Source: Escherichia phage HMD-9. Taken from it: DNA of 64,000 nt. Below are positions 2,868 through 58,888 of this stretch, one piece after another (positions within the stretch are counted from its first letter, which is position 1; every line of letters starts with the position of its first letter). The notes under the pieces were generated by a model. It did not search any database and was not told the origin of the DNA. It saw only the letters and a list, made by a program, of their open reading frames with translations. The DNA lies in sequence record PV287714.1; one strand, written 5' to 3'. The position numbers and the translations under genes are program-made.

Positions 2868-2888
2868 TCCTATTTACTCCAAGTAATA

Positions 2889-2902
2889 GGGGCCGAAGCC
2901 CC
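2889..2902. repeat. GC hairpin GGGGCCGAAGCCCC (UUCG tetraloop on the minus-strand transcript), copy 1 of 3
   Basis: perfect 5-bp GC stem plus 4-nt loop; identical 14-mer at 43312-43325 and 62630-62643. Confidence 0.6.
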
Positions 2903-2908: not shown

Positions 2909-3502
2909 TTATTTCAGAGAATTAATATATTCCTGGACATCGGCAGAGGTAGTTTCAACCCCAGAAATATTGCCGTTAAAAGTTTCAACTCGAGCAAGGG
3001 TATCTTCAATATCAACCTTAGTCAGTGCTGCAATTTCAACTACATCATCGGCAGTACTAATTCCAAGGGCATTTGCCGCACGAGTTTCACGGATATATTC
3101 CAATTTAACTGCAAGTTCTTGGCGAGCATCATCTAACTCAACTACTTTCTTGGCGATTTCAATTCGCATTTCAGCATAACCGTCAGCTTTAGTAGTCAAT
3201 TGCTCAGCTGTTCGACGATATAGCAAACCGAGTTTAGCGTGCATTGTTACATCTTGACCTTCGGAAAGAAGTTTACGAATTTCACGCTCTTTTGATTCGG
3301 CTTGTCGATTCTTTTCAATAACAAGTTCACGAATACGTTTTTCTTCATTAATAGATTTAACAGAAGCAGTTTTTAAGTCTTTAATCTTATCAAGTAGTTT
3401 TGCTGCTGCAGCAGTATACTGTTCTTCAACAGATAGATTTTTAGCCATAGCAGAACCAAGTTTAGTGCGAATAAACTCAACAATTTTCTTCAGTGTGTTC
3501 AT
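2909..3502 (-). CDS. coiled-coil protein, possible PspA/IM30-like
   Basis: 197 aa; ATG with SD AAGGAAA; long charged heptad-like helices ([27 protein letters not shown]..) resembling PspA by eye only. Confidence 0.5.
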
Positions 3503-3546
3503 AGTATTTCCTTAGGTTAATTAAGATTTAAAAATCCGTGAGAATA

Positions 3547-3723
3547 TTATATTTCAAAGAGTTTATAAACTATTTCAACATCTCCTTTTGCCGCTTTATA
3601 ACCTTCAGCCCAAGATACAACCAAGTTTTTATCTGAAGATTCAAAGTCAGGCATTGGACTTTCATCAATGTTCACACAGTATGTTTCTTCATTTTCGTCA
3701 AACCAAATAGTTAAAATAGTCAT
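3547..3723 (-). CDS. small hypothetical protein (58 aa)
   Basis: ORF below the track cutoff; SD GGAGAAATAA before ATG at 3723-3721; MTILTIWFDENEETYCVNIDESPMPDF.. Confidence 0.4.
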   Translation of the reverse strand: MTILTIWFDENEETYCVNIDESPMPDFESSDKNLVVSWAEGYKAAKGDVEIVYKLFEI

Positions 3724-5846: not shown

Positions 5847-5922
5847 TGGTCGAGGCAGTAGGGGTCGAACCTACGACCTAGGACTTAGAAGGTCCTTGCT
5901 CTTCCTTCTGAGCTATGCCTCG
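5847..5922 (-). tRNA. tRNA-Arg (anticodon UCU)
   Basis: cloverleaf by hand: acceptor CGAGGCA/TGCCTCG, D-arm GCTC..GAGC, anticodon loop CTTCTAA, T-arm GTAGG-TTCGACC-CCTAC, CCA encoded. Confidence 0.85.
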
Positions 5923-5926
5923 GATT

Positions 5927-6001
5927 TGGCGGACATGCATGGATTCGAACCATGGACCAATTGATTAACAGTCAACTGCTCTACCACTGAGCTACACATC
6001 C
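5927..6001 (-). tRNA. tRNA-Asn (anticodon GUU)
   Basis: acceptor GGATGTG/CATGTCC (two G-U pairs), D-arm GCTC-AGTGGTA-GAGC, anticodon loop CTGTTAA, T-arm CATGG-TTCGAAT-CCATG, CCA encoded. Confidence 0.75.
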
Positions 6002-6005
6002 AAAT

Positions 6006-6092
6006 TGGTGGGGAGTGATGGAGTCGAACCACCCGAGTCGCAATGACAATGGATTTACAGTCCACACCGCTACCTCTACGGGATAACTCCCC
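6006..6092 (-). tRNA. tRNA-like gene, probable type-II tRNA-Tyr (anticodon GUA) with irregular D-arm
   Basis: acceptor GGGGAGT/ACTCCCC, anticodon stem-loop TGGA-CTGTAAA-TCCA, long variable arm, T-arm GGTGG-TTCGACT-CCATC, CCA encoded; D-arm pairing is non-canonical. Confidence 0.5.
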
Positions 6093-6101
6093 TAATTAAT
6101 T

Positions 6102-6176
6102 TGGTGGCCCTGGGTGGAATTGAACCACCATCTGGCGATTATGAGTCGCTTGCTTGAACCTTCCAGCTACAGGGCC
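6102..6176 (-). tRNA. tRNA with anticodon CAU (Ile2/lysidine type by T4 position; Met not excluded)
   Basis: acceptor GGCCCTG/CAGGGCC, anticodon loop CTCATAA, T-arm GGTGG-TTCAATT-CCACC, CCA encoded; 1 nt from tRNA-Thr. Confidence 0.8.
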
Positions 6177-6177
6177 T

Positions 6178-6253
6178 TGGTGCTGATTGACGGAATCGAA
6201 CCGCCGACCTTCTCATTACAAGTGAGTTGCTCTACCTACTGAGCTAAATCAGC
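6178..6253 (-). tRNA. tRNA-Thr (anticodon UGU)
   Basis: acceptor GCTGATT/AATCAGC, D-arm GCTC-AGTAGGTA-GAGC, anticodon loop CTTGTAA, CCA encoded. Confidence 0.85.
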
Positions 6254-6258
6254 AAAAC

Positions 6259-6348
6259 TGGCGGAGGCGATAGGATTTGAACCTATGAGTCGCCGGAGCG
6301 ACTGCCGGTTTTCAAGACCGGTGCATTAAACCACTCTGCCACGCCTCC
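6259..6348 (-). tRNA. tRNA-Ser (anticodon UGA), type II
   Basis: acceptor GGAGGCG/CGCCTCC, anticodon loop CTTGAAA, long variable arm, T-arm ATAGG-TTCAAAT-CCTAT, CCA encoded. Confidence 0.85.
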
Positions 6349-6350
6349 AG

Positions 6351-6424
6351 TCTCCGTGGCAGGATTTGAACCTGCGACATTCTGCTCCCAAAGCAGACGC
6401 TCTACCAAACTGAGCTACACGGAG
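6351..6424 (-). tRNA. tRNA-Pro (anticodon UGG)
   Basis: acceptor CTCCGTG/CACGGAG, D-arm GCTC-AGTTTGGTA-GAGC, anticodon loop TTTGGGA, T-arm GCAGG-TTCAAAT-CCTGC; CCA not encoded; 2 nt from tRNA-Ser. Confidence 0.85.
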
Positions 6425-6434
6425 TAAATTAAAT

Positions 6435-6508
<74 letters not shown>

Positions 6509-6513
6509 AAATT

Positions 6514-6600
6514 TGGTGCGAGAAGTGGGACTCGAACCCACAAGGAAATCATTCCGCAGCATTTTAAGTGCTGTGCCTTTACCAATTTGACCATTCTCGC
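6514..6600 (-). tRNA. tRNA-Leu (anticodon UAA), type II
   Basis: acceptor GCGAGAA/TTCTCGC, anticodon stem-loop CAGCA-CTTAAAA-TGCTG, long variable arm, T-arm GTGGG-TTCGAGT-CCCAC, CCA encoded. Confidence 0.85.
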
Positions 6601-6601
6601 G

Positions 6602-6674
6602 CTGGGAATAAAGGACTCGAACCTTTGCATCTAGCAGTCAAAGTGCTATGCCTTACCAACTTGGCTAATTCCCA
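6602..6674 (-). tRNA. tRNA-Gln (anticodon UUG)
   Basis: acceptor TGGGAAT/ATTCCCA, anticodon stem-loop TAGCA-CTTTGAC-TGCTA, T-arm AAAGG-TTCGAGT-CCTTT; CCA not encoded; 1 nt from tRNA-Leu. Confidence 0.85.
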
Positions 6675-12446: not shown

Positions 12447-14157
12447 TAACCTTAATTGGTTTGTTGGTGTTGTTGAAGATAGAATGGACCCATTAAAATT
12501 AGGTCGTGTTCGTGTTCGTGTGGTTGGTTTGCATCCACCTCAAAGAGCGCAAGGCGACGTAATGGGTATTCCAACCGATAAATTACCATGGATGTCAGTT
12601 ATTCAACCTATAACTTCTGCAGCAATGTCTGGAATTGGAGGTTCTGTTACTGGACCGGTAGAAGGAACTAGAGTTTATGGTCATTTTTTAGACAAATGGA
12701 AAACTAATGGAATTGTCCTTGGCACGTATGGTGGAATAGTTCGCGAAAAGCCTAATAGACTTGAAGGATTTTCTGACCCAACTGGACAGTATCCTAGACG
12801 TCTAGGAAATGATACTAACGTATTAAACCAAGGCGGAGAAGTAGGATATGATTCGTCTTCTAATATTATCCAAGATAGCAATCTAGACACTGCGATAAAT
12901 CCTGATGATAGACCGCTATCAGAGATTCCAACTGATGATAATCCAAATATGTCAATGGCTGAAATGCTTCGCCGTGATGAAGGATTAAGACTAAAAGTTT
13001 ATTGGGATACTGAAGGATATCCGACAATTGGCATTGGTCATCTTATCATGAAGCAGCCAGTTCGTGATATGACTCAAATTAATAAAGTTTTATCAAAACA
13101 AGTTGGTCGTGAAATTACCGGAAATCCAGGTTCTATTACAATGGAAGAAGCGGTAACTTTATTTGAACGTGATTTGGCTGATATGCAACGTGACATTAAA
13201 TCACATTCTAAAGTTGGCCCAGTTTGGAAAGCAGTTAATCGTTCTCGTCAAATGGCATTAGAAAATATGGCATTTCAGATGGGTGTTGGCGGTGTAGCTA
13301 AATTTAACACAATGTTAACAGCTATGTTAGCCGGAGATTGGGAAAAAGCATATAAAGCTGGTCGTGATTCATTGTGGTATCAACAAACAAAAGGCCGTGC
13401 ATCTCGTGTTACCATGATTATTCTTACAGGGAATTTGGAATCATACGGTATTGAAGTGAAAACACCGGCTAGGTCTTTGTCTGCAATGGCTGCTACTGTA
13501 GCAAAGTCTTCTGATCCAGCTGACCCTCCTATTCCGAGTGATTCGAGAATTTTATTTAAAGAACCTGTTTCTTCATATAAAGGTGAATATCCGTATGTTC
13601 ATACAATGGAAACTGAAAGCGGTCATATTCAGGAATTTGATGATACCCCTGGGCAAGAACGATACAGATTAGTTCATCCGACTGGAACATATGAGGAAGT
13701 ATCACCGTCAGGAAGAAGAACAAGAAAAACTGTTGACAATTTGTATGATATAACAAATGCTGATGGTAATTTTTTGGTAGCTGGCGATAAAAAGACTAAC
13801 GTCGGTGGATCAGAAATTTACTACAACATGGATAATCGTCTTCACCAAATAGATGGAAGCAACACAATATTTGTCCGCGGCGATGAAACTAAGACGGTTG
13901 AAGGTAATGGAACTATCCTAGTCAAAGGTAATGTTACTATTGTAGTTGAAGGTAATGCTGACATTACAGTTAAAGGGGATGCTACTACTTTAGTTGAAGG
14001 AAACCAGACTAATACAGTAAATGGAAATCTTTCTTGGAAAGTTGCTGGGACAGTTGATTGGGACGTTGGTGGTGATTGGACAGAAAAAATGGCATCTATG
14101 AGTTCTATTTCATCTGGTCAATACACAATTGATGGATCGAGGATTGACATTGGCTAA
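12430..14157 (+). CDS. 5: gp5 baseplate hub / tail lysozyme
   Basis: 575 aa; N-terminus MEMISNNLNWFVGVVED..; internal lysozyme domain MAEMLRRDEGLRLKVYWDTEGYPTIGIGHL paralogous to e; C-terminal VEGN repeats. Confidence 0.95.
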   Translation: MEMISNNLNWFVGVVEDRMDPLKLGRVRVRVVGLHPPQRAQGDVMGIPTDKLPWMSVIQPITSAAMSGIGGSVTGPVEGTRVYGHFLDKWKTNGIVLGTYGGIVREKPNRLEGFSDPTGQYPRRLGNDTNVLNQGGEVGYDSSSNIIQDSNLDTAINPDDRPLSEIPTDDNPNMSMAEMLRRDEGLRLKVYWDTEGYPTIGIGHLIMKQPVRDMTQINKVLSKQVGREITGNPGSITMEEAVTLFERDLADMQRDIKSHSKVGPVWKAVNRSRQMALENMAFQMGVGGVAKFNTMLTAMLAGDWEKAYKAGRDSLWYQQTKGRASRVTMIILTGNLESYGIEVKTPARSLSAMAATVAKSSDPADPPIPSDSRILFKEPVSSYKGEYPYVHTMETESGHIQEFDDTPGQERYRLVHPTGTYEEVSPSGRRTRKTVDNLYDITNADGNFLVAGDKKTNVGGSEIYYNMDNRLHQIDGSNTIFVRGDETKTVEGNGTILVKGNVTIVVEGNADITVKGDATTLVEGNQTNTVNGNLSWKVAGTVDWDVGGDWTEKMASMSSISSGQYTIDGSRIDIG

Positions 14158-14686
14158 TATACTTCCAATGAGCGCTGATTTAGGAGAATCCATGGAAGGT
14201 TCTTCTATCGACGTCACCTTTACCGCTCAATTAGAAACAGGTGAAACGTTAGTATCTATAAATATAACTAGTTACGAAGAAACTCCTGGGGTTTTAGTAG
14301 AAGAAAATCGTTTATATGGAACGTATGAATCTGTGTTTGGATTTGGAAATGATGCATTGAAATATCGTTTAGATGATGAATTTAAAACTGCTGCTTCATG
14401 GGAAGACCTTCCAACTGATTCTAATACTCAGTTATATCTATGGAAAGCTCCTCAAAACCTTCAGAAGACATTCACTTACGAAGTAACATTAATATATGAC
14501 TACCAAGAACAAAGTGAATCTGGAGGTTCTGGCAGTAATTCTAGGTCATCTTCTGATACTACTGAACCAACCGATCCTCCAGCTCCAATAAGAAAAACTC
14601 TTGTTAAAAATTACACAAAAACTATAGTTGGAAATTGGAGTCGTTGGGCTAATAAATTGAGAAGCTACGTATATGAGAGGCAATAA
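14132..14686 (+). CDS. 5.1: gp5.1-like protein
   Basis: ORF-track start 14129 is TTG; first ATG at 14132 (start uncertain, 14168 also possible). Confidence 0.55.
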
Positions 14687-14979
14687 TGTCAGGATTAAGT
14701 TATGATAAGTGTGTTACTGCTGGCCATGAAGCGTGGCCTCCAACAGTTGTGAATGCTACACAAAGTAAAGTATTCACTGGAGGAATTGCTGTTCTCGTAG
14801 CAGGTGATCCAATTACAGAACATACAGAAATTAAAAAGCCATATGAAACACATGGCGGAGTGACACAACCTAGAACTTCTAAGGTATATGTCACTGGAAA
14901 GAAAGCTGTTCAAATGGCTGATCCAATATCATGCGGTGATACTGTAGCTCAGGCATCATCTAAAGTATTCATTAAATAG
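14686..14979 (+). CDS. 5.4: gp5.4 PAAR-repeat spike-tip protein
   Basis: 97 aa, Cys/His-containing; size and position match T4 5.4. Confidence 0.85.
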
Positions 14980-26018: not shown

Positions 26019-27476
26019 ATGATTGAATTAAAAGAGTTACCTTTTGTTGATAGCGTTCCTGGCGAAGGCCAGGAACGTATTTCATGGATTAAAAACGGTG
26101 AAGAAATACTAGGAGCTAGTACTAAGTATGGAAGCGATGGGTCAATGAATAGACCAACTGTTTCCGTGTTTAAAAATGTCGAGGTTCTCGATGAAAATGT
26201 AGGAATTCTTAAAACTGCCATTGAAACATCTCAGGAAGATATTAAAACCATTCAAGGCATTTTAGATGTATCAGGAGATATAGAAGCACTATCACAGATC
26301 AGCATTAATAAAAATGATATATCAAATTTAAAGACACTCACGAATGAACACACTGATATATTAAATGGTACAAATACCACGGTTGATAATATTCTTTCTG
26401 ATATTGGTCCATTTAATTCGCAAGCAAATTCAGTTTATAGAACGATTAGAAATGATTTGTTATGGATTAAAAGGGAATTAGGACAATATACTGGGCAAGA
26501 CATTAATGGTCTTCCTGTTGTAGGAAATAGCAGCACGGGGATGAAGCACCGTATCATTAATAATACAGATGCTATAACTTCCCAAGGAATACGTCTAAGT
26601 GATTTGGAAGAAAAATTTATTGAATCTGATGTAGGTTCACTGACAATTGAAGTCGGAAATCTTAGACAAGAACTTGGACAAAGACCATCTTCATTCAGTG
26701 AAAGCATATATTCACGTGTGCATAATTTAGATCAATCTCAGATTAATCTTAGTTCCGAAATTAAATCTATCAAAACTTCTATTGGATATCCAGGAAATAC
26801 TTCAATAATCACAGATGTTAACACTAATACACGAGAAGTTTCAGCTTTAAATGATGAACTAAATAAAAGCGGAGGTATTAAACAACGATTGACTGTCATT
26901 GAAACGTCAATTGGCTCAGATGATATTCCTTCTAGTATTAAAGGTCAAATTAAAGATAATACCACATCAATTGAGTTTTTAAATGGAATTGTTGGTGAAA
27001 ACACTTCATCTGGACTACGAGCAAACGTTTCATGGCTAAACCAAATCGTTGGAACTGATTCTAGTGGAGGTCAGCCTTCTCCTCCTGGGTCTCTTTTAAA
27101 TAGGGTTTCAACTGTTGAAACTTCAGTTAATAGACTGAACAATGATGTTCAAAACTTACAAGTTGAAATTGGTAATAACACTACTGGAATTAAAGGCCAA
27201 GTTGTTGCACTAAATAAACTAGTAAGCGGCACAAATCCAAATGGTTCAACAGTAGAAGAGCGCGGATTAACTAATTCAATAAAAGCTAATGAAACTAACA
27301 TTTCTTCTATTAATCAAGAAATGCGTAATATTAAAAGTAATGTATCTTCATTACAGGGGGATGTTCAGACTTTACAGGAAGCAGGTTATATCCCTGAAGC
27401 TCCAAAAGATGGCCAAGCTTACGTTCGTAAAGACGGCGAATGGGTACTACTTTCTACCTTTTTATCACCAGCATAA
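26019..27476 (+). CDS. wac: fibritin (whisker, wac)
   Basis: 485 aa; coiled-coil repeats and C-terminal foldon [27 protein letters not shown]. Confidence 0.9.
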
Positions 27477-27480
27477 CATG

Positions 27481-27506
27481 GGGCCGCAAGGCCCTAAAGG
27501 ATTTTT
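27481..27506 (+). terminator. GNRA hairpin GGGCC-GCAA-GGCCC after wac (weak terminator / stability element)
   Basis: perfect 5-bp GC stem with GCAA loop then TAAAGGATTTTT. Confidence 0.4.
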
Positions 27507-34416: not shown

Positions 34417-34434
34417 GGCCTGTTTCGACAGGCC
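34417..34434 (+). terminator. hairpin GGCCTGT-TTCG-ACAGGCC after gene 18 (partial terminator)
   Basis: perfect 7-bp stem, TTCG loop; weak T tract. Confidence 0.4.
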
Positions 34435-34435
34435 A

Positions 34436-34443
34436 TATAAATA
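34436..34443 (+). promoter_or_regulatory. T4 late promoter TATAAATA (distal, gene 19)
   Basis: exact TATAAATA directly after the gene 18 hairpin. Confidence 0.5.
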
Positions 34444-35010: not shown

Positions 35011-35017
35011 AATGAAT

Positions 35018-35031
35018 GGGGAGAAATCCCC
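35018..35031 (+). terminator. GNRA hairpin GGGGA-GAAA-TCCCC after gene 19
   Basis: 5-bp GC stem with GAAA loop; no strong T tract. Confidence 0.35.
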
Positions 35032-35042
35032 ATCCTGCTTAA

Positions 35043-38786: not shown

Positions 38787-40352
38787 ATGACTATCAAAAC
38801 TAAAGCTGAACTTTTGAACAAATGGAAGCCATTACTGGAAGGTGAAGGTTTACCGGAAATTGCTAATAGCAAACAAGCGATTATCGCTAAAATCTTTGAA
38901 AACCAGGAAAAAGATTTCCAGACAGCTCCAGAGTACAAAGACGAAAAAATCGCTCAGGCGTTCGGTTCTTTCTTAACAGAAGCTGAAATCGGTGGTGACC
39001 ACGGTTACAATGCTACTAACATCGCTGCAGGTCAGACTTCTGGCGCAGTAACTCAGATTGGCCCAGCTGTTATGGGTATGGTACGTCGTGCTATTCCTAA
39101 CCTGATTGCTTTCGACATTTGCGGTGTTCAGCCGATGAACAGCCCGACTGGCCAGGTATTCGCACTGCGCGCAGTATACGGTAAAGACCCGGTCGCTTCC
39201 GGTGCTAAAGAAGCATTCCACCCAATGTATGGTCCAGATGCAATGTTCTCTGGTCAGGGTGCTGCTAAGAAATTCGCTGCTTTGAAAGCAAGTGATACTC
39301 TTGAAGTTGGAACTATTTACACCCACTTCTTCCAGGACACTGGTACTGTGTATCTGCAAGCTACAGAAGTTAAGCAAATTGATACTAGTGCAACTGACGC
39401 AGCTAAATTAGATGCTGAAATTAAGAAACAAATGGAAGCTGGTGTACTGGTAGAAATCGCTGAAGGTATGGCTACTTCTGTCGCTGAACTTCAGGAAAGT
39501 TTCAACGGTTCTACCGATAACCCATGGAATGAAATGGGCTTCCGTATCGATAAACAAGTTATCGAAGCTAAATCTCGCCAGCTGAAAGCTGCTTACTCTA
39601 TCGAATTAGCACAAGACCTCCGCGCTGTTCACGGTATGGATGCTGATGCTGAACTGTCTGGTATTCTGGCTACAGAAATCATGCTGGAAATTAACCGTGA
39701 AGTTGTTGATTGGATTAACTACTCAGCTCAGGTTGGTAAATCTGGTATGACCCTGACTCCGGGTTCTAAAGCTGGTGTATTTGACTTCCAGGATCCGATT
39801 GATATTCGTGGTGCTCGCTGGGCGGGTGAATCCTTTAAAGCTCTGTTGTTCCAGATTGACAAAGAAGCAGTTGAAATTGCTCGTCAGACTGGTCGTGGTG
39901 AAGGTAACTTCATTATCGCTTCCCGTAACGTAGTTAACGTTCTGGCTTCAGTTGATACCGGCATTTCTTATGCTGCACAGGGTCTGGCTACCGGCTTTAA
40001 CACTGATACTACCAAGTCAGTATTTGCTGGTGTTCTGGGTGGTAAATACCGTGTATATATCGACCAGTATGCTAAACAGGATTATTTCACTGTAGGTTAT
40101 AAAGGTCCGAACGAAATGGATGCTGGTATTTACTATGCTCCATATGTAGCTCTGACTCCGCTGCGTGGTTCCGATCCGAAGAACTTCCAACCAGTAATGG
40201 GATTCAAAACTCGTTACGGTATCGGTATCAACCCATTTGCAGAATCCGCTGCTCAGGCTCCGGCTTCTCGCATCCAGAGCGGTATGCCTTCTATTCTGAA
40301 TAGCCTTGGTAAAAACGCTTACTTCCGCCGTGTATATGTTAAAGGTATCTAA
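38787..40352 (+). CDS. 23: gp23 major capsid protein
   Basis: 521 aa; size and order match T4. Confidence 0.97.
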   Translation: MTIKTKAELLNKWKPLLEGEGLPEIANSKQAIIAKIFENQEKDFQTAPEYKDEKIAQAFGSFLTEAEIGGDHGYNATNIAAGQTSGAVTQIGPAVMGMVRRAIPNLIAFDICGVQPMNSPTGQVFALRAVYGKDPVASGAKEAFHPMYGPDAMFSGQGAAKKFAALKASDTLEVGTIYTHFFQDTGTVYLQATEVKQIDTSATDAAKLDAEIKKQMEAGVLVEIAEGMATSVAELQESFNGSTDNPWNEMGFRIDKQVIEAKSRQLKAAYSIELAQDLRAVHGMDADAELSGILATEIMLEINREVVDWINYSAQVGKSGMTLTPGSKAGVFDFQDPIDIRGARWAGESFKALLFQIDKEAVEIARQTGRGEGNFIIASRNVVNVLASVDTGISYAAQGLATGFNTDTTKSVFAGVLGGKYRVYIDQYAKQDYFTVGYKGPNEMDAGIYYAPYVALTPLRGSDPKNFQPVMGFKTRYGIGINPFAESAAQAPASRIQSGMPSILNSLGKNAYFRRVYVKGI

Positions 40353-40367
40353 TCTTTGACGATTTAA

Positions 40368-40396
40368 GGGACCTTCGGGTCCCTTTAGTTGTTTTT
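40368..40396 (+). terminator. rho-independent terminator after gene 23 (UUCG hairpin)
   Basis: GGGACC-TTCG-GGTCCC followed by TTTAGTTGTTTTT. Confidence 0.65.
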
Positions 40397-40400
40397 ATGG

Positions 40401-40408
40401 TATAAATA
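40401..40408 (+). promoter_or_regulatory. T4 late promoter TATAAATA for gene 24
   Basis: exact TATAAATA 28 nt upstream of ATG 40436. Confidence 0.6.
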
Positions 40409-40435
40409 AATCATATAAACTGAAAGGAAAGCGCA

Positions 40436-41719
40436 ATGGCTAAAATCAACGAACTTTTGCGCGAATCAACCACAACGAATAGCAACTCAATCGGTCGCCC
40501 AAATCTCGTTGCTTTGACTCGCGCTACCACTAAATTAATATATTCTGACATTGTAGCAACGCAAAGAACTAATCAACCTGTTGCTGCTTTTTATGGTATC
40601 AAATACCTTAACCCAGATAATGAATTTACATTTAAAACTGGTGCTACTTACGCTGGCGAAGCTGGGTACGTAGATCGAGAACAAATCACAGAATTAACAG
40701 AAGAGTCTAAATTAACTCTCAATAAAGGCGATTTATTCAAATATAATAATATCGTTTATAAAGTATTAGAAGATACACCATTTGCTACCATTGAAGAAAG
40801 CGATTTAGAATTAGCTCTTCAGATTGCAATTGTTCTTTTAAAGGTTCGTCTATTTTCTGATGCTGCAGTAACAAGCAAATTTGAAAACTCTGATAGCGAA
40901 ATTGCGGATGCTAGATTCCAGATTAATAAATGGCAAACCGCAGTTAAATCTCGTAAACTTAAAACTGGCATTACGGTTGAATTAGCACAAGATTTAGAAG
41001 CAAATGGATTCGATGCTCCTAATTTCTTAGAAGATTTGCTTGCAACTGAAATGGCGGATGAAATCAATAAAGATATTCTGCAGTCTTTGATTACAGTGTC
41101 AAAACGCTATAAAGTTACAGGAATTACTGATACTGGATTCATCGATTTGAGTTATGCATCTGCTCCTGAAGCTGGTCGTTCATTATACCGAATGGTATGT
41201 GAAATGGTTTCGCATATCCAAAAAGAATCAACTTATACAGCAACGTTCTGTGTTGCTTCTGCTCGTGCCGCTGCGATTCTTGCTGCATCAGGTTGGTTAA
41301 AACATAAACCAGAAGATGACAAATATCTTTCACAAAATGCCTACGGGTTATTAGCTAATGGTTTACCGCTTTATTGCGATACCAACAGCCCATTAGATTA
41401 TGTAATCGTTGGCGTAGTAGAAAATATCGGTGAAAAAGAAATTGTTGGATCAATTTTCTATGCTCCGTATACAGAAGGTCTTGACTTAGATGACCCTGAA
41501 CATGTAGGTGCATTTAAAGTTGTAGTTGATCCAGAAAGCTTACAACCATCTATCGGTTTATTGGTTAGATATGCTTTATCTGCAAATCCTTACACTGTAG
41601 CAAAAGATGAAAAAGAAGCAAGAGTAATTGATGGTGGAGACATGGATAAAATGGCGGGTCGTTCAGATTTGTCTGTTTTATTAGGTGTTAAACTACCAAA
41701 AATTATCGTTGATGAATAA
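40436..41719 (+). CDS. 24: gp24 capsid vertex protein
   Basis: 427 aa; size and order match T4. Confidence 0.95.
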   Translation: MAKINELLRESTTTNSNSIGRPNLVALTRATTKLIYSDIVATQRTNQPVAAFYGIKYLNPDNEFTFKTGATYAGEAGYVDREQITELTEESKLTLNKGDLFKYNNIVYKVLEDTPFATIEESDLELALQIAIVLLKVRLFSDAAVTSKFENSDSEIADARFQINKWQTAVKSRKLKTGITVELAQDLEANGFDAPNFLEDLLATEMADEINKDILQSLITVSKRYKVTGITDTGFIDLSYASAPEAGRSLYRMVCEMVSHIQKESTYTATFCVASARAAAILAASGWLKHKPEDDKYLSQNAYGLLANGLPLYCDTNSPLDYVIVGVVENIGEKEIVGSIFYAPYTEGLDLDDPEHVGAFKVVVDPESLQPSIGLLVRYALSANPYTVAKDEKEARVIDGGDMDKMAGRSDLSVLLGVKLPKIIVDE

Positions 41720-41725
41720 AACAAA

Positions 41726-41746
41726 GGGACCAAAAGGTCCCTTTTT
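41726..41746. terminator. bidirectional rho-independent terminator between convergent genes 24 and rnlB
   Basis: GGGACC-AAAA-GGTCCC with T runs on both strands. Confidence 0.65.
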
Positions 41747-42762: not shown

Positions 42763-43041
42763 TCAAAATGTAATTTCTAACCAATCACCATCACGCTGAT
42801 CACTATTGACTTTAAAGCTAAATCCTTCTTTTCTCAGCCAATCACCAATTTCTTCAGTAATCAATTTATCGCGAGCGATACAATAATAACTAAAATATGT
42901 TTTACCTTGTTCAGCTGCTTTATTGGCAAGTTCCGAAAAATCTTTAATAAAACACTCTAGCTTAAACTGTTTACTTTTTAATGCTTTTTCGCGTAGTTGA
43001 TTAGCAAAAGATTCATTTTCATAAAGATCATACTGTTCCAT
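42763..43041 (-). CDS. hypothetical protein (24.2-like position)
   Basis: 92 aa ORF between rnlB and hoc. Confidence 0.55.
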   Translation of the reverse strand: MEQYDLYENESFANQLREKALKSKQFKLECFIKDFSELANKAAEQGKTYFSYYCIARDKLITEEIGDWLRKEGFSFKVNSDQRDGDWLEITF

Positions 43042-43237
43042 TTTTCACCTTTTTATTGATATGTCTTTTTCTATAGACAACTTTTTCTCGAGTTTCAAAT
43101 TTATTCTTAGCAGTCATAGCTCGAGCCCATAATACAGCCACTTCTTTTGCCTGTAAGTTTAATTCACGAGCAATTTCAATGAATGACTTTCCAGACTCAT
43201 GAAGAGTAAACACCACAACCTCAGTTCTCATAATCAA
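43028..43237 (-). CDS. small protein with helix-turn-helix-like segment (24.3-like position)
   Basis: 69 aa; SFIEIARELNLQAKEVAVLWARA resembles a sigma region-4/LuxR-type HTH. Confidence 0.45.
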   Translation of the reverse strand: MIMRTEVVVFTLHESGKSFIEIARELNLQAKEVAVLWARAMTAKNKFETREKVVYRKRHINKKVKNGTV

Positions 43238-43298
43238 TCCCGTATTATTTGGTTTGTGCCATTATATACATCAATCTCAAGATGTGTTTTGTATGCTT

Positions 43299-43325
43299 TA
43301 AAACGAAGAAAGGGGCCGAAGCCCC
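43299..43325 (-). terminator. rho-independent terminator after hoc (UUCG hairpin GGGGCUUCGGCCCC plus U-run)
   Basis: minus-sense hairpin followed by TTTCTTCGTTTT; copy 2 of the 14-nt hairpin. Confidence 0.65.
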
Positions 43326-43331
43326 TTACGA

Positions 43332-44462
43332 TTATGGATAAGTATAGATGATACCAGTTTCTAAAGCAGTTTTATGAATGATGTATCCATTACGTGATTC
43401 TTGAACATCAACTTCTGGATAATCTTGAATCATCTTCTGAAGAGTGTAACGATGCAGGTAATATTTACTATCTGGGTCGTCAGTTTTCCAATCTTTACCT
43501 TCTTCGGTCATTTTTTGGATTTCATCCATAACCCACCAACCGCACCAGATGTAAGCTGAAGTACGATGTGGAAGAGGATGAACATAAGGTAATTCACCTT
43601 CTGGTTCTGGAGCAACTTTATCAGTTACCTGAACTTGACCTGTTGCTGTAATAGTTTTGCTATCATAATCAGCAGCAGTAACAGTTGCAGTAACTTCAAT
43701 AGTTTGACTTCCAACAGATGAAGTATCAACTGTATATACATTAGTTGACTCTTCTACAGTAGAAGAATCTTTCTTCCACGAGTAAGTAATTTGTGCTTCT
43801 TCTGGAGCATCAGTAACATTAGCAGTAAATGTAGCCGAAGCATCTTGTTGAACGTTAATAGAAGGAGGAGTCAATGTAACCTGTGGATTCATTGTCTTCT
43901 TATTAACCGTTAATGACACTTCATTAGAAGTAACGCTTAGTGCATCATAATCTGTCGCGGTTACTTGAGCTACACACTTGATTTTTTTAACTCCGCTTGT
44001 GGTAGGAGTGTAATTGAATGTAGCGCTAGTTGCTTCGTCCACAGGAGAATCATCTACATACCACTGATACGTAGCAGATGCTCCATCAGGTTGAGAAGCT
44101 AAGGCAGCAGTAAATTGAACTGGGGTTCCGATTACTCCAGCGTCAGGGTTATCAGGAGTTACAGCCAATGTAGTTGACTGAGTTTTATTTTTAACTGTGA
44201 TAGTTGTTGTCGCTTCAGCCGTTTCCGGGCCTCCTTCAGAAAGTGTATTTGTTGCAACAACTTTAATTGTTTTTGTTCCAGCAGGTCCTTTTAGTACATA
44301 ACTAAAAGTTGCTTCAGCCCCATCTTGTAGAACATCATCTACGCTCCAAGCATATGTAATAGTTCCACCTTCAGTTTGACCACTGGGTGCAGCAGTAAAC
44401 TGCTCGGTTTCATCAATAACCCCCGTTGGTGTTTTAGGAGTTATATCAACTGTAAAAGTCAT
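43332..44462 (-). CDS. hoc: Hoc highly immunogenic outer capsid protein (Ig-like repeats)
   Basis: 376 aa; repeated beta-rich segments with Y.W motifs (YAWSVDD, YQWYVDD, YSWKKD); size and order match T4. Confidence 0.85.
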   Translation of the reverse strand: MTFTVDITPKTPTGVIDETEQFTAAPSGQTEGGTITYAWSVDDVLQDGAEATFSYVLKGPAGTKTIKVVATNTLSEGGPETAEATTTITVKNKTQSTTLAVTPDNPDAGVIGTPVQFTAALASQPDGASATYQWYVDDSPVDEATSATFNYTPTTSGVKKIKCVAQVTATDYDALSVTSNEVSLTVNKKTMNPQVTLTPPSINVQQDASATFTANVTDAPEEAQITYSWKKDSSTVEESTNVYTVDTSSVGSQTIEVTATVTAADYDSKTITATGQVQVTDKVAPEPEGELPYVHPLPHRTSAYIWCGWWVMDEIQKMTEEGKDWKTDDPDSKYYLHRYTLQKMIQDYPEVDVQESRNGYIIHKTALETGIIYTYP

Positions 44463-45201: not shown

Positions 45202-45819
45202 ATGTACCACTTTGTATATGAAACGACAAATCTAATAAATGGTAAAAAGTATATAGGAAAACACTCTACTGATGACTTGAATGATGGCTACCTTGGTTCC
45301 GGTAAAGCAATTCAGCAGGCTATAAAGAAATATGGTGAAAAGAATTTCTCTAGAACAATACTAAAAGAGTTTAAAACTTCCGAAGAAGCGTACATGTATG
45401 AAGAAGAAATTATAACTCCTGAACTAATAAAAAGCAAAAATTATTATAATATGAAACCTGGTGGAATTGGTGGAATTGTTATGACTGCAGAGGTTATAGC
45501 AAAGATGAAAGAATCTTCCGCTAAGAGATTTGAAAACTCACCGGGCACGGTATTAGGTACAACTTGTTACACCAATGGAACTAAAAATATTTTTATTAAA
45601 CCTGGAGAACTTGTTCCAGAAGGATTTGTAAAAGGGATGGTTCATCTTAATAGAAAGTCCAGAAAAGGATGTAAAGTCAAACCGACTACCACAGGAACTT
45701 TTTGGGTCAATAATGGAGCAATAAATAAATTAATACAACCAGACGGTATTATTCCCGACGGATTTATTAAAGGTCGTCTCATGAAAAGAGACTCTAAAGG
45801 CAAATTTAGTAAGGCATAA
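45202..45819 (+). CDS. segE: GIY-YIG homing endonuclease SegE
   Basis: 205 aa; N-terminal GIY-YIG-type module (HFVYETTNLINGKKYIGKHS..YLGSG); size and position match T4 segE. Confidence 0.85.
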   Translation: MYHFVYETTNLINGKKYIGKHSTDDLNDGYLGSGKAIQQAIKKYGEKNFSRTILKEFKTSEEAYMYEEEIITPELIKSKNYYNMKPGGIGGIVMTAEVIAKMKESSAKRFENSPGTVLGTTCYTNGTKNIFIKPGELVPEGFVKGMVHLNRKSRKGCKVKPTTTGTFWVNNGAINKLIQPDGIIPDGFIKGRLMKRDSKGKFSKA

Positions 45820-45821
45820 TT

Positions 45822-47330
45822 ATGGATATTAAAGTACATTTTCACGACTTCAGTCATGTACGCATCGATTGTGAAGAGAGCACGTTCCACGAATTAAGAG
45901 ATTTCTTTTCGTTTGAGGCCGATGGATATAGGTTTAATCCTCGCTTCAGATATGGCAACTGGGATGGACGAATCCGTCTTTTAGATTATAATCGCCTTCT
46001 TCCATTCGGCTTAGTCGGGCAAATTAAAAAGTTCTGTGATAACTTTGGCTATAAAGCTTGGATTGACCCACAGATTAACGAAAAAGAAGAATTATCAAGA
46101 AAAGATTTTGATGAATGGCTTTCTAAATTAGAAATCTATTCAGGAAATAAAAGAATTGAACCGCATTGGTATCAAAAAGATGCAGTGTTCGAAGGATTAG
46201 TTAATCGTCGTAGAATTCTTAATCTTCCAACATCCGCAGGTAAATCCTTAATTCAAGCTTTGCTTGCTCGTTATTATTTGGAAAATTATGAAGGTAAAAT
46301 TCTTATCATTGTTCCAACAACTGCTCTGACAACTCAGATGGCTGATGACTTTGTTGACTATCGTTTATTCAGTCATGCAATGATAAAGAAAATTGGCGGT
46401 GGAGCATCAAAAGATGATAAATATAAAAATGATGCACCAGTCGTTGTTGGTACATGGCAAACTGTAGTAAAACAGCCAAAAGAATGGTTCTCACAGTTTG
46501 GAATGATGATGAATGATGAATGCCATCTTGCTACAGGAAAAAGTATTTCATCTATCATATCAGGTTTAAATAACTGCATGTTTAAATTTGGTTTGTCCGG
46601 TTCATTGCGTGATGGCAAAGCTAATATCATGCAGTATGTTGGAATGTTTGGTGAAATATTTAAGCCAGTAACGACTTCTAAATTAATGGAAGATGGACAA
46701 GTAACTGAGTTAAAAATTAATAGTATTTTTCTTCGCTATCCCGATGAGTTCACTACTAAATTAAAGGGAAAAACTTACCAAGAAGAAATAAAAATTATTA
46801 CTGGACTCAGTAAAAGAAATAAATGGATCGCTAAATTAGCTATTAAGCTTGCGCAAAAAGATGAAAACGCTTTTGTCATGTTTAAACACGTATCACACGG
46901 TAAAGCTATTTTCGATTTAATTAAAAATGAATACGATAAAGTTTATTACGTATCAGGGGAAGTTGATACCGAAACACGCAACGTAATGAAAACCTTAGCT
47001 GAAAACGGTAAAGGAATAATTATAGTAGCTAGTTATGGTGTATTTTCTACTGGTATTTCAGTTAAAAATCTGCATCACGTTGTTTTAGCACACGGTGTTA
47101 AATCTAAAATTATTGTATTGCAAACAATAGGTCGCGTATTACGTAAGCATGGTTCTAAAACAATCGCAACGGTCTGGGACCTCATAGATGATTGCGGTGT
47201 TAAGCCAAAATCTGCTAATACGAAAAAGAAATATGTTCATTTGAACTATCTTTTAAAACACGGCATTGATCGTATTCAGCGCTACGCAGATGAAAAATTT
47301 AATTACGTAATGAAAACAGTTAATTTATAA
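45822..47330 (+). CDS. uvsW: UvsW DNA/RNA helicase (SF2)
   Basis: 502 aa; Walker A PTSAGKS, DEAH-like MMNDECH; size matches T4 UvsW. Confidence 0.9.
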   Translation: MDIKVHFHDFSHVRIDCEESTFHELRDFFSFEADGYRFNPRFRYGNWDGRIRLLDYNRLLPFGLVGQIKKFCDNFGYKAWIDPQINEKEELSRKDFDEWLSKLEIYSGNKRIEPHWYQKDAVFEGLVNRRRILNLPTSAGKSLIQALLARYYLENYEGKILIIVPTTALTTQMADDFVDYRLFSHAMIKKIGGGASKDDKYKNDAPVVVGTWQTVVKQPKEWFSQFGMMMNDECHLATGKSISSIISGLNNCMFKFGLSGSLRDGKANIMQYVGMFGEIFKPVTTSKLMEDGQVTELKINSIFLRYPDEFTTKLKGKTYQEEIKIITGLSKRNKWIAKLAIKLAQKDENAFVMFKHVSHGKAIFDLIKNEYDKVYYVSGEVDTETRNVMKTLAENGKGIIIVASYGVFSTGISVKNLHHVVLAHGVKSKIIVLQTIGRVLRKHGSKTIATVWDLIDDCGVKPKSANTKKKYVHLNYLLKHGIDRIQRYADEKFNYVMKTVNL

Positions 47331-47355
47331 GGGCTTCGGCCCTTTGGAGAAAAAG

Positions 47356-47839: not shown

Positions 47840-48064
47840 TTATATAACTCTCATATGCATATCAATGCCCATATCTTTAGAATAAAAATATTCATCAAGA
47901 TATCCGGCAAATTTTCCTTTAATATAAAGTACATCTTCACCACATGGGTGGTCGGCCAGGATACGAATATCCTGGCGCTTGAGATTATACTTTTTCATTA
48001 AGAATTGAATTTCCGTTTCGAATTCTTCTTCATAATTAAAAGCATCATCAATGCTATATTTCAT
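47840..48064 (-). CDS. hypothetical protein (uvsY.-2 position)
   Basis: 74 aa; ATGA-coupled to uvsY stop. Confidence 0.55.
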   Translation of the reverse strand: MKYSIDDAFNYEEEFETEIQFLMKKYNLKRQDIRILADHPCGEDVLYIKGKFAGYLDEYFYSKDMGIDMHMRVI

Positions 48065-55858: not shown

Positions 55859-55862
55859 CAAT

Positions 55863-55892
55863 GGGGACCTTTCGGTCCCCATATTTTTATTT
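55863..55892. terminator. bidirectional terminator between convergent gene 54 and the alt-upstream ORFs
   Basis: GGGGACC-TTTC-GGTCCCC followed by ATATTTTTATTT on plus; GAAA loop on the minus transcript. Confidence 0.6.
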
Positions 55893-56177
55893 ACGGAATG
55901 AAATAAAAGCAGCAACTGAAGCAACTAAACTGTCTTCAATATAAACTTCAATTTTTACCGGAGCTTCTGACTCAAATTTACCTGTTACTACACCTTGGAA
56001 AATACTTTCAGTCTGTTCTGGCTTTGAAAAATTTTCAGAAGGAAAAATTCCGAACTTTTTATCTGTTCCAAAAATTTTGATAAATTCATCATAAACTGCT
56101 TCATTAAAAGCATTATCAGCAGGAATAACGCCTTCAACTACAAGTTCTTGACCTAAAAAGCGCAAAGAAGATTTCAT
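55887..56177 (-). CDS. hypothetical protein (alt.-3 position)
   Basis: 96 aa ORF downstream of the alt fragments. Confidence 0.5.
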   Translation of the reverse strand: MKSSLRFLGQELVVEGVIPADNAFNEAVYDEFIKIFGTDKKFGIFPSENFSKPEQTESIFQGVVTGKFESEAPVKIEVYIEDSLVASVAAFISFRK

Positions 56178-56209
56178 TTTGTGTTCCTCATGTTATGTCA
56201 GTAAGATTA

Positions 56210-56413
56210 CTATAACACAACATGAGGGACTTGTAAACTACATTTTGAACTTTTTAGTACGCGTAATAGGCATGCGTCGATTTTATACTGTTTCATTGTT
56301 TGAAGAGCAGTATCAAAAACAGCATTAATGACACCAATTGGATTTCCACCCATGTTTTTAAGCTTAACTAATGATAGTTTCTCATTAACACCTATCATTA
56401 CGATATGCATCAT
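56210..56413 (-). pseudogene. alt N-terminal duplicate, distal fragment (homologous to Alt residues about 65-120)
   Basis: MMHIVMIGVNEKLSLVKLKNMGGNPIGVINAVFDTALQTMKQYKIDACLLRVLKS aligns with Alt MMHIVPFTLTAKGSIAKLKGLGPSPINYINSVFTVAMQTMRQYKIDACMLRILKS. Confidence 0.6.
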
Positions 56414-56595
56414 TTTATCGCCCGGCTTAACGTTTTATTCGTATCACCGCCAGAGGTGTATGTACAAAATCTAAATCCAGGAAGCACACTTTCTTCACCG
56501 GCTTGAATAGCAAAAATTTGAGGTATTTTATGCTTAGGATTTAAGTTAACAACCGGCGCCGAAGCGCCGTCAAATAATTCTGTAATAAGTTCCAT
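56410..56595 (-). pseudogene. alt N-terminal duplicate, proximal fragment (homologous to Alt residues about 2-60)
   Basis: MELITELFDGASAPVVNLNPKHKIPQIFAIQAGEESVLPGFRFCTYTSGGDTN aligns with Alt MMELITELFDENTTLPITNLYPKKKIPQIFSVHVDDAIEQPGFRLCTYTSGGDTN; frame breaks exactly at the MMHIV junction. Confidence 0.6.
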
Positions 56596-56598
56596 GAT

Positions 56599-58647
56599 TT
56601 ATCCTTGAACAAACTTGTAAGGCATGTTTGCAATATCTATGCAAGACGCAATAATTCCAAGAGATGATTCTGCTTTCTGTTTAACATTTGATGAAACAAA
56701 CGATGCAAAGTCAACTCTATCTTCTATATCACCTGTCATTGTAACCAATTCACCAGTTTCCATTAAACGGTCACCGTCATAAATTACCGATTCGGTGAGT
56801 TCTTCTGTGGTCATAACTTCAGCTTGAATAAGCTTGTTGTTAGTTCTAATTGTTCCATCGTTGTAAGATGCATCAGTTATTTTATTAACTTTGACCATTA
56901 ATCCACGTGGCAAAATGACTTCCATTTCATTTGAAGGCGCTAAACTTCCACCGGGTAAAACAACATTGACCTTATCAGCCCCAGTAATAACCCATCCAAT
57001 TCCAACTAAATTATCGCTAGAATTTACAAGTCCTTCATCAGTTTTATCAATAGAAACACTTAAACGCTTTTCGTCTGGTAAAACACCCACAGATGAATCA
57101 GTCATCCAAGTACCAAAAATATTTGGATATAATGATGTTGACACAAAGTTTCTAAAATAAAAAACTCGATTTTTTACCATTGCTTCGTATATTGAAGGTA
57201 ACATTCGTTGTGAACGATACAAAGTAATACCTTTTGGTAATCGTTCACCATTTTTAAAGGCTGAATCTAAATTATCAATGGCTTGTTCTATTTCAGGTGC
57301 TGTTAAAATACTTGTACGCTCATCTGGATTATATAATCCCAAAAGAGCATTATTCATGTCTACATATCCTGAACCTACATATTCACGAATTCCGCGTTTT
57401 TGCGCTGGTGTGTATTTAGATGAATCTTTATTTTCGACTATAGGATGTAATGACCATCCAGCGGTAAGAGCATATCCACGTAATTCTCTTCGAATAATCT
57501 TTGTTTTTATTGCATTCCAAGAATTTTGTACTAACTCATTTGCAGCATCTTGGTTTAAATGCGAATGTCTGTTAATATTTCTTTCAAACCAAGCACCTTT
57601 ATATTTTTCTAAAGTATCATCGACGATAGAAGCAATAGTTTCTAAAGTTTTTATTGAAGTAATAGATTCTTTTCGTAATTTTTCTAAAGCTTTATTTTTT
57701 ATTTCTGCATTAATAATGGATTCTTTATCTTCAGGAATTATAGAAGCTTCTCTGAATGCCATCCCAGCTGTAACACTGCTAAGAGCATTCTCTAATGCAA
57801 ATCCTGAAGTAGAAATAACAGTTAATTCGTTAGCATCAGAAATTAAAGGCGCGTCGGCGGGTTTATTTAATTCTGCTGCTGAAGCCTCAAATTTTTGAAA
57901 CATTGGTGTTTCAAATCTAGAAGATTCCAATGACTGACTTTGTGCAATTGCTCTACGGGAAATTTTAACTTTAACAATAACAGCTTGGTCAGAACGCTTA
58001 TCATTTTCTTGCGCAATAGATGCAGCAATTGCCTCATTTTTAGTTACTTGAGCTCCAGTATCTTTATTGATATAAACATCACCGACCTTCGATTCAACTT
58101 TAGTAAAGAGCTCGGTGCTAATTTCCGGAACTCCTGGAATGTCTTCTAGTGATACATTTTTGCGATGTATAAGAATATATGCATACTTTTTATCGTAATC
58201 CCAGAGTTCCTTAAGAAGGACGTATCTGCCGCCTGAACGACTGCGGATAAGTCTATCAGCAATAACTTGAATTTGTCGAGCTTGACCAGCAGTTTTAGAC
58301 TTAAGAATACGAAGCATGCAGGCATCAATTTTATACTGACGCATCGTTTGCATCGCAACAGTAAAAACTGAATTGATGTAATTAATTGGGCTTGGACCGA
58401 GACCTTTTAATTTAGCAATTGAACCTTTAGCAGTTAATGTAAAAGGAACGATGTGCATCATTTTATCGCCCATCTTTAAATCACGGTTAGTATCACCTCC
58501 AGATGTATAAGTACATAAACGAAAGCCTGGTTGTTCTATTGCGTCATCAACATGAACTGAAAAAATTTGTGGTATTTTCTTCTTTGGATACAAATTTGTA
58601 ATCGGAAGAGTAGTATTTTCGTCAAATAATTCTGTAATAAGTTCCAT
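56599..58647 (-). CDS. alt: Alt ADP-ribosyltransferase (packaged, injected)
   Basis: 682-683 aa (tandem ATG at 58650/58647); size and position upstream of gene 30 match T4 alt. Confidence 0.88.
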   Translation of the reverse strand: MELITELFDENTTLPITNLYPKKKIPQIFSVHVDDAIEQPGFRLCTYTSGGDTNRDLKMGDKMMHIVPFTLTAKGSIAKLKGLGPSPINYINSVFTVAMQTMRQYKIDACMLRILKSKTAGQARQIQVIADRLIRSRSGGRYVLLKELWDYDKKYAYILIHRKNVSLEDIPGVPEISTELFTKVESKVGDVYINKDTGAQVTKNEAIAASIAQENDKRSDQAVIVKVKISRRAIAQSQSLESSRFETPMFQKFEASAAELNKPADAPLISDANELTVISTSGFALENALSSVTAGMAFREASIIPEDKESIINAEIKNKALEKLRKESITSIKTLETIASIVDDTLEKYKGAWFERNINRHSHLNQDAANELVQNSWNAIKTKIIRRELRGYALTAGWSLHPIVENKDSSKYTPAQKRGIREYVGSGYVDMNNALLGLYNPDERTSILTAPEIEQAIDNLDSAFKNGERLPKGITLYRSQRMLPSIYEAMVKNRVFYFRNFVSTSLYPNIFGTWMTDSSVGVLPDEKRLSVSIDKTDEGLVNSSDNLVGIGWVITGADKVNVVLPGGSLAPSNEMEVILPRGLMVKVNKITDASYNDGTIRTNNKLIQAEVMTTEELTESVIYDGDRLMETGELVTMTGDIEDRVDFASFVSSNVKQKAESSLGIIASCIDIANMPYKFVQG

Positions 58648-58670
58648 CATATCCTCTCTAGTGTTTATTC

Positions 58671-58678
58671 TATTTATA
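58671..58678 (-). promoter_or_regulatory. T4 late promoter TATAAATA for alt
   Basis: reverse-complement TATAAATA about 20 nt upstream of the alt start. Confidence 0.5.
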
Positions 58679-58701
58679 AAATTAAAGGCCCGAAGGCCTT
58701 T
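58674..58701 (-). terminator. UUCG hairpin AAAGGCC-UUCG-GGCCUUU at the end of ORF 58700-58888
   Basis: 7-bp stem with UUCG loop on the minus transcript, overlapping the stop codon and followed by an A/U-rich tract. Confidence 0.5.
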
Positions 58702-58888
58702 AATAATCTAATGGTAAGAGAGTACGATATATTTCAAACTTTGGCCCTTTTTCATAGGCATCAAATGTTTCTGAAAATTTATTATAAGCATATGCATCTA
58801 CAAATTCGAGAATGATTTGTGATACAGAAGTAGAAACATCTCCACCTTCTTTTTGAGCAACGACAATTGTTTCTAAGTAAGCTTTCAT
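58700..58888 (-). CDS. hypothetical small protein, ATGA-coupled to DNA ligase
   Basis: 62 aa ORF. Confidence 0.5.
   Translation of the reverse strand: MKAYLETIVVAQKEGGDVSTSVSQIILEFVDAYAYNKFSETFDAYEKGPKFEIYRTLLPLDY

Follow-up and report, generated by a model that had tools for sequence, protein, structure and literature searches.

Identical C(UUCG)G hairpins after e.6, hoc and 30.7 of a T4-type phage: a putative terminator and two candidate intra-operon mRNA elements

Why should a T4-type phage carry one and the same short hairpin at three separate places in its genome, and is the hairpin likely to do the same thing at each of them? The question is raised by the 14-mer GGGGCCGAAGCCCC, which an exact search of the + strand finds exactly three times (Table 1) in the window, that is, in the whole 64,000-nt stretch of Escherichia phage HMD-9 (PV287714.1) analyzed here. 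None of 100 dinucleotide-preserving shuffles contained it even once, which rules out a chance repeat. Allowing two mismatches adds only two sites, 47330-47343 (AGGGC-UUCG-GCCCU, in + sense) and 56555-56568. The window comes from a T4-type phage (Tequatrovirus); its segments are 94-99% identical to hundreds of T-even genomes and it corresponds to approximately 64-131 kb of T4. On the basis of the window ORFs and the T4 map, all three copies were assigned to intergenic positions just downstream of the minus-strand genes e.6, hoc and 30.7, at distances of 6, 6 and 10 nt, respectively, from the stop codon. Since all six flanking genes lie on the minus strand, the mRNA at each site reads GGGGCUUCGGCCCC, or GGGGC(UUCG)GCCCC: a Watson-Crick stem with a C-G closing pair and a UUCG tetraloop. 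An earlier sequence-only reading of this DNA had claimed just this, namely an identical 14-nt UUCG hairpin at three positions, always in minus-strand gene context and forming C(UUCG)G in the transcript, and on all of these points it was borne out.

The bare 14-mer has a predicted folding energy of -9.6 kcal/mol (ViennaRNA), and the three stems, once their flanking A-U and G-U pairs are counted in, differ in length (Table 1); the same energy model rates the UUCG loop no better than UUUG. Outside the hairpin the flanks of the copies are unrelated, so the 14-mer is not the core of a longer repeat or of a mobile element. Even when the T4 copy that follows regA is added to the comparison, the common part is the hairpin plus a short U/GGAG stretch only. 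An Rfam search of the whole window at the gathering thresholds returned no family for the UUCG hairpins; its sole matches were 10 tRNAs, in a minus-strand cluster (5850-6674) for which 8 tRNA genes are annotated in T4.

Table 1. Positions of the three 14-mer hairpins, their associated signals and the other hairpins discussed (window coordinates).
Feature	Position	Strand	Context and remarks
Copy 1 hairpin	2889-2902; extended stem 2888-2903 (one A-U pair added; 6 bp, -11.2 kcal/mol)	-	between e.6 (2909-3502) and e.5 (2259-2867); ends 21 nt before e.5 AUG; no U-tract
GGAG, Shine-Dalgarno of e.5	2877-2880	-	7 nt past extended hairpin of copy 1
Copy 2 hairpin	43312-43325; extended stem 43310-43327 (7 bp, -12.1 kcal/mol)	-	between hoc (43332-44462) and 24.3 (43028-43231); extended stem begins 4 nt past hoc stop
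U-tract UUUCUUCGUUUU	43298-43309	-	immediately 3' of copy 2; with hairpin, an intrinsic-terminator-like site
Copy 3 hairpin	62630-62643; extended stem 62627-62646 (8 bp, -13.5 kcal/mol)	-	between 30.7 (62654-63019) and 30.6 (62325-62612); 14-mer core ends 17 nt before 30.6 AUG; no sense U-tract
GAGG, Shine-Dalgarno of 30.6	62621-62624	-	2 nt past extended hairpin of copy 3
GCAA-loop hairpin	27479-27496	sense	after wac
UUCG hairpin, same class	34417-34434	+	after gene 18; abuts late-promoter motif TATAAATA at 34436-34443
GAAA-loop hairpin	35016-35033	sense	after gene 19
UUCG hairpin, same class, AAGGGACC-UUCG-GGUCCCUU	40366-40385	+	after gene 23
Hairpin with AAAA loop (neither UUCG nor GNRA)	41723-41744		after gene 24
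UUCG hairpin AAGGGC-UUCG-GCCCUU, one pair shorter	47329-47344	+	after uvsW, then at once a GGAG ribosome-binding site; no U-tract
Hairpin with UUUC loop in gene 54 sense, GAAA only in the sense of convergent alt.-3	55861-55882		after gene 54
UUCG hairpin CGGCGC-UUCG-GCGCCG	56554-56569	-	30 nt past alt stop, inside small alt.-1 ORF (56410-56595)
UUCG hairpin, same class	58681-58704	-	alt.1|alt junction, then TATAAATA at 58671-58678
UUCG hairpin plus UUUUUAUUUU, terminator-like	63506-63527	-	after 30.9, then promoter-like site 63476-63448

The class to which the three copies belong is already known: they are intercistronic C(UUCG)G hairpins, whose first description came from T4 (Tuerk et al. 1988, PNAS 85:1364, per PMC8948821). 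According to the latter article, CUUCGG hairpins are abundant in the intergenic regions of T4 and stop reverse transcriptase (there citing Tuerk 1988), C(UUCG)G hairpins are reported to be unusually stable thermally, and one CUUCGG hairpin stabilizes the gene 32 mRNA. The T4 hairpins resemble ours in loop, closing C-G pair, short G+C stem, intergenic placement, transcript-sense orientation and phage group. Nothing essential sets the two apart; T4 itself has a UUCA loop at the 30.7|30.6 junction, where the relative L026 has UUUG, and with such loops in close relatives, some departure from the exact loop is evidently tolerated at that site. The exact 14-mer occurs in T4 after e.6 (69292), after hoc (110167) and, outside the region covered by the window, after regA (29954). 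About 8 of the 21 C(UUCG)G hairpins of T4 have the stem (A/G)GGGC, and with a stem so strongly favored, repeated identical copies are hardly surprising. A functional need for identity among the three copies is ruled out by nine genomes outside the T4 type, in each of which the hairpins at the three orthologous sites all differ from one another. The identity is thus specific to the T4 lineage; it reflects convergence on the favored (A/G)GGGC stem and does not mark a repeated or mobile element.

What has been conserved at these sites is an RNA structure. In our tetraloop-hairpin scan of the window, where the UUCG count was limited to predicted energies of -7 kcal/mol or lower, all 10 UUCG hairpins are in transcript sense (p = 0.002). 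In the assembled T4 genome the same holds for all 25 whose stem has 6 bp or more (p = 6e-8). The orthologous sites, examined in IMG/VR loci that encode relatives of e.6, 30.7 and Hoc, tell a similar story. A hairpin lies just past the stop codon in 16/16 sequences at the e.6 site, in six versions (among them GGGGC-UUCG, GGAGGAC-UCCG, GGGAGAC-UUCG, GGGGGC-UUU and GGGGGGC-AAA), and in 15/15 at the 30.7 site, likewise in six versions (including GGGGC-UUCG, GGGGC-UUUG, GGAGGC-UUCG, GGGAGC-UUCG and GGGGC-GAAA). At the hoc site it is present in 21 of 23 sequences, in 18 versions with UUCG, GCAA, UUGC and other loops. Both arms of the stem change together across the lineages, so that it is the pairing, and not the sequence, that is conserved; selection would accordingly seem to act on the RNA structure. 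The tails behave just as regularly. In all 15 sequences of the 30.7 site there are 1-3 U in the 8 nt past the stem, followed by GAGG, and the combination of hairpin and (U)UGAGGAAA at the 30.7|30.6 junction is kept in 14/14 related loci. The e.6 site has 2-5 U in the same interval and then GGAG or GGAU in 15/15 related loci, while the hoc site tails mostly have at least 5 U in 8 nt (5-6 U). This site-by-site conservation of the presence or absence of a U-tract suggests that two functional kinds of hairpin are maintained separately.

The first kind is represented by the hoc copy. In the sense direction it is followed directly by UUUCUUCGUUUU, and it is flagged in that direction by a terminator-consensus scan that passes over copies 1 and 3, so the claim that only the hoc copy has a clear U-run holds. 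T4 terminators are described in PMC2988022 as combining a GC stem with a loop of 4 nt and poly(U), and the orthologous hoc site is annotated as a terminator in phages fPS-2 and SV76. With its hairpin and conserved U-tract, the hoc copy is best regarded as a putative intrinsic (Rho-independent) terminator. A -10-like TATAAT is found some 50 nt downstream of it, for which the scan finds no -35 element. All three copies share with the Rho-independent terminators of E. coli and T4 the G+C-rich stem, the 4-nt loop, the position just past a stop codon and the sense orientation; only the hoc copy shares the U-tract. Copies 1 and 3 differ from such terminators in lacking this tract, a lack conserved across lineages, and in having the next gene only 17-21 nt downstream. 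The sequence-only reading had distinguished these two as lying between co-directional genes, which is true of both but does not separate them from the hoc copy, since that one is between co-directional genes as well.

At copies 1 and 3 the hairpin runs almost immediately into the signals for the next gene. The sense tail of copy 1 is UAUUACUUGGAG (AUUACUUGG in the U-tract comparison), and the arrangement past the hairpin is UAUUACUU-GGAG-N9-AUG; for copy 3 the tail is UUACUGAGG (CUGAGGAAA in the same comparison) and the arrangement UUACU-GAGG-N8-AUG. We found no sense-strand promoter-like site between hairpin and start codon at either copy. Further upstream, just before 30.7, there is a near-consensus sigma-70 promoter-like sequence (TTGACA-18-TAAAAT, 63119 to 63090 on the minus strand), so that 30.7 is bracketed by this site on one side and the copy 3 hairpin on the other.

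This layout is by no means confined to T4-type phages. An exact scan of IMG/VR for the 14-mer yielded at least 120 stretches, with 127 copies among the matches listed, which were placed relative to genes by simple gene calls. The matches listed represent 95 distinct sequence contexts with G+C contents from 33 to 68%, essentially none of them T4-like, and 98 of their 127 copies fall between genes (noncoding background, 7.4%). Nearly all of these intergenic copies among the matches listed (92/98) are sense to a same-strand upstream gene, usually 5-14 nt past its stop codon. Again among the matches listed, the next same-strand start is at most 30 nt away in 53 of the 62 copies with U-poor tails (median 21 nt) and in 13 of the 30 with U-rich tails (Fisher p = 5e-5). 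Copies 1 and 3, with their 21 and 17 nt to the next start, are typical of the stop-hairpin-Shine-Dalgarno-AUG layout among the matches listed. Many unrelated phages thus make the same use of the 14-mer. One unrelated 7-kb viral contig (IMGVR_UViG_3300014821_000003, our L137) has three copies between 249 and 1131, spaced by approximately 400-470 nt, which indicates that there the identical hairpin is reused between successive small genes.

Taking these observations together, we think it probable that the three copies are standard "punctuation" hairpins that act in the mRNA and not in the DNA, the hoc copy as a terminator and copies 1 and 3 post-transcriptionally. They would be independent instances of the C(UUCG)G hairpin, each placed a few nt past a stop codon. 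The hoc copy would end the inh-hoc transcript and leave it with an exonuclease-resistant 3' end. For copies 1 and 3, which lie within strings of co-directional genes, the role in RNA stability or processing already put forward by the sequence-only reading is the most plausible. RNA polymerase would mostly read through them, and they would block 3'-to-5' exonucleases once the polycistronic early mRNA had been cut downstream; with such a block, the upstream cistron would survive the cut. They may also give the downstream cistron a structured 5' edge, with at most a weak attenuation of transcription besides. How such effects would divide among decay barrier, weak attenuator and translation insulator we infer from the anatomy of the two sites. 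A literature search for T4 3'-end data (Term-seq, ONT-cappable-seq) gave no usable 3'-end, half-life or expression data for them, and the supplement of a T4 RNA-seq/proteome paper is limited to host DESeq2 tables and temporal classes, in which all four flanking genes count as "early RNA".

For e.5 the cut might be made by the T4 endoribonuclease RegB, whose core motif is GGAG (PMC3014915), at the GGAG adjacent to copy 1. This GGAG is a poor match to the extended RegB consensus GGAGRAYARAA, and copy 3 is followed by GAGG and no GGAG, so RegB cannot be the general partner of these hairpins; we have rejected it as a general mechanism. The REP elements in E. coli operons are intercistronic hairpins that stabilize mRNA. 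Copies 1 and 3 resemble both these and the T4 gene 32 leader hairpin in being stable stem-loops of a polycistronic mRNA, located at the 3' end of a cistron and without a U-tract, and the decay-barrier role of those systems is the one that we propose here from anatomy. The 14-mer hairpins are much shorter than REP, and, unlike for REP, we know of no protein bound to C(UUCG)G hairpins.

Other readings must be weighed against the punctuation reading. All three copies could terminate or attenuate transcription, lowering it stepwise along the early operons. One annotated genome (G50) does label the orthologue of copy 1, at its e.6|e.5 site, a "putative transcriptional terminator", and the copy 1 tail is partly U-rich (4-5 U in 8). 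The stem-loop of the element PeSL211/210 of phage RB49 cut expression about as much as rrnB T1 when placed between a strong promoter and lacZ (PMC2839356), and a weak T4 terminator within mobE stops around 30% of the transcripts (PMC2988022). Nevertheless, the consensus scan is silent on copies 1 and 3 in the sense direction and the 30.7 site is poor in U throughout its relatives. In addition, the 21 and 17 nt before the next start leave no room for a promoter, so that termination here would starve e.5 and 30.6, and it is precisely the U-poor 14-mers of unrelated phages that, among the matches listed, sit preferentially within 30 nt of a start in what is an intra-operon position. We therefore regard termination at all three sites as unlikely. 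Alternatively, copies 1 and 3 could act on translation, either by freeing the ribosome-binding site from long-range pairing or by uncoupling or tuning re-initiation. The geometry of stop, 5-10 nt, hairpin, 2-8 nt, Shine-Dalgarno and AUG, kept in all the relatives and common for the 14-mer in unrelated phages among the matches listed, would suit such a role, and the Shine-Dalgarno of 30.6 is unpaired in context folds. A similar "very stable hairpin" just upstream of a ribosome-binding site has been noted, with no function assigned, for seg43(25) of Aeromonas phage 25 (PMC2988022). Against this, the same type of hairpin is also found where no gene follows closely, as at the hoc site, and at copy 1 the minimum-free-energy fold (though not the centroid) pairs UUGGAG with upstream sequence; a primary effect on translation seems to us distinctly improbable. 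It is more improbable by far that copies 1 and 3 serve as terminators of antisense (+ strand) transcription. The scan of the + strand does flag both of them, one as AGGGGCCGAAGCCCCT followed by TATCATTATT and the other as the same hairpin followed by CATTTTATTT. These T-rich + tails are, however, simply the A-rich stop-codon regions (UAAUGAUAA, UAAAAUAAAAUGA) of an AT-rich DNA, and on the + strand the UUCG loop becomes CGAA. Because there is no + strand late-promoter motif upstream, in 1-2889 or in 55900-62630, and the hairpins of this class all share the orientation of the genes, we have set this possibility aside.

The remaining alternative places the function in the DNA: the hairpins would be short conserved linkers for the exchange of gene cassettes between co-infecting T4-type phages, as proposed for the PeSL (promoter-early stem-loop) cassettes of T4-like phages, modeled as recombination linkers made up of a stem-loop and an early promoter (Arbiol 2010, PMC2839356; Comeau 2014, PMC4122927). 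The sequence-only reading had also suggested recombination points or boundaries of variable segments, and homology does break at the hairpins. In 9 of the 15 related e.6 loci (L015-L023) the stretch homologous to the window at the DNA level breaks off at copy 1 (2885-2899); e.6 itself is still ~75% identical in these loci, and in two of them (L015 and L016) e.5 is replaced by an ORF without a T4 match. A further locus, L013, drops from 88% identity in e.6 to 47% in e.5. Near copy 3, L031 has a break at 62606 and a 204-aa ORF without a T4 match in place of 30.6 (in this same locus 30.7, at 93%, is far better conserved than 30.8, at 37%), and past hoc the homology ends at 43309-43345 in most of the distant relatives. 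Megablast likewise finds the downstream genes in fewer phage records than the upstream ones: 502 for e.5 versus 640 for e.6, and 503 for 30.6 versus 694 for 30.7. The PeSL papers, moreover, place one crossover in the stem-loop, inside its loop (PMC2839356, PMC4122927). Like PeSL, copies 1 and 3 are poly-G/poly-C stem-loops that lie between small early genes of hyperplastic regions and precede a Shine-Dalgarno and a start codon; the gene replacements between relatives at the hairpins may be a further likeness. Comparable breaks are nevertheless found at junctions that have no hairpin (3513-3551 and 63085), and viable mosaics must break between genes anyway. The hairpins coincide with steps in conservation, yet hairpin-less gene junctions do so too, and the boundary claim has some support. 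For 30.6 the lower megablast count is also in part a matter of divergence below the threshold and not of loss, since one related locus (L030) aligns through 30.6 at 76%. Copies 1 and 3 differ from PeSL in having no sigma-70-like early promoter between hairpin and start, and the likeness between the copies in the window covers 14 bases, far below the ~100 bp conserved in PeSL. As the stems differ between lineages, the lineages in which replacement is seen are just those that have no homology in common at the hairpins. Finally, a pure DNA recombination site would not predict a strict sense orientation or compensatory changes in the stem. All told, a mainly DNA-level role is very unlikely in our view.

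Returning to punctuation in the mRNA, there is little new in such hairpins as such: hairpin-type terminators are routinely predicted in T4, and C(UUCG)G hairpins were discovered by way of its intercistronic regions. For annotators, the three sites are a reminder that not every hairpin of this kind is a terminator, as two of them show a conserved lack of a U-tract, with the next gene 17-21 nt away. We would add, tentatively and as something we consider on the whole unlikely, that the copies without a U-tract may form a distinct and widespread class with a role of its own, laid out as stop, 5-10 nt, C(UUCG)G hairpin, 2-10 nt, Shine-Dalgarno and AUG. The suggestion draws on the conserved absence of the tail in all 15 sequences of the 30.7 site and on the 53 of 62 U-poor copies, among the matches listed in IMG/VR, that have a start close by. 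If correct, such hairpins could set the expression ratio of neighboring cistrons via protected mRNA ends, or uncouple their translation, and could double as microhomology for cassette exchange.

The window contains a number of other hairpins (Table 1). The sequence-only reading had listed UUCG or GNRA hairpins after genes 18, 19, 23, 24, 54, wac, uvsW and alt; the tetraloop scan finds them as described after 18, 19, 23, wac, uvsW and alt, but neither 24 nor 54 has such a loop in its own sense. The hairpins at these last two places (24/rnlB and 54/alt.-3) are single structures between convergent genes, with A/U runs on both sides, and they look like bidirectional terminators. Two UUCG hairpins directly abut the late-promoter motif (34417-34443 on the + strand and 58671-58704 on the minus strand), forming a composite analogous to the early-promoter arrangement of PeSL. 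The hairpin inside alt.-1 is present in T4 as well, at 123409, and one may ask if alt.-1 is a genuine gene or instead the 3' untranslated region of alt. With respect to homing-endonuclease genes, the window differs from T4 in the absence of segD (40352-40436; genes 23 and 24 are direct neighbors) and of segC together with 5.3 (14132-14979), while segE is present (45202-45819).

Two more hairpins lie within coding DNA. A 9-bp UUCG hairpin, GCCAGGAUA-UUCG-UAUCCUGGC (47955-47976, minus strand, -13.5 kcal/mol), is located inside the uvsY.-1 coding region and is also present in T4, at 114805. A perfect 11-bp hairpin, GCGUUCCUGGC-GAAG-GCCAGGAACGU (26053-26078, + strand, -20.9 kcal/mol), lies 34 nt into the wac ORF and 44 nt past the stop codon of gene 12. 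T4 has a different hairpin, GGCCCUC-CUGCA-GAGGGCC, in the same wac codons, so it seems that the structure has been kept and its sequence changed, even within coding DNA. By analogy with those reported in mobE and segF, the wac hairpin may be an intragenic terminator or attenuator.
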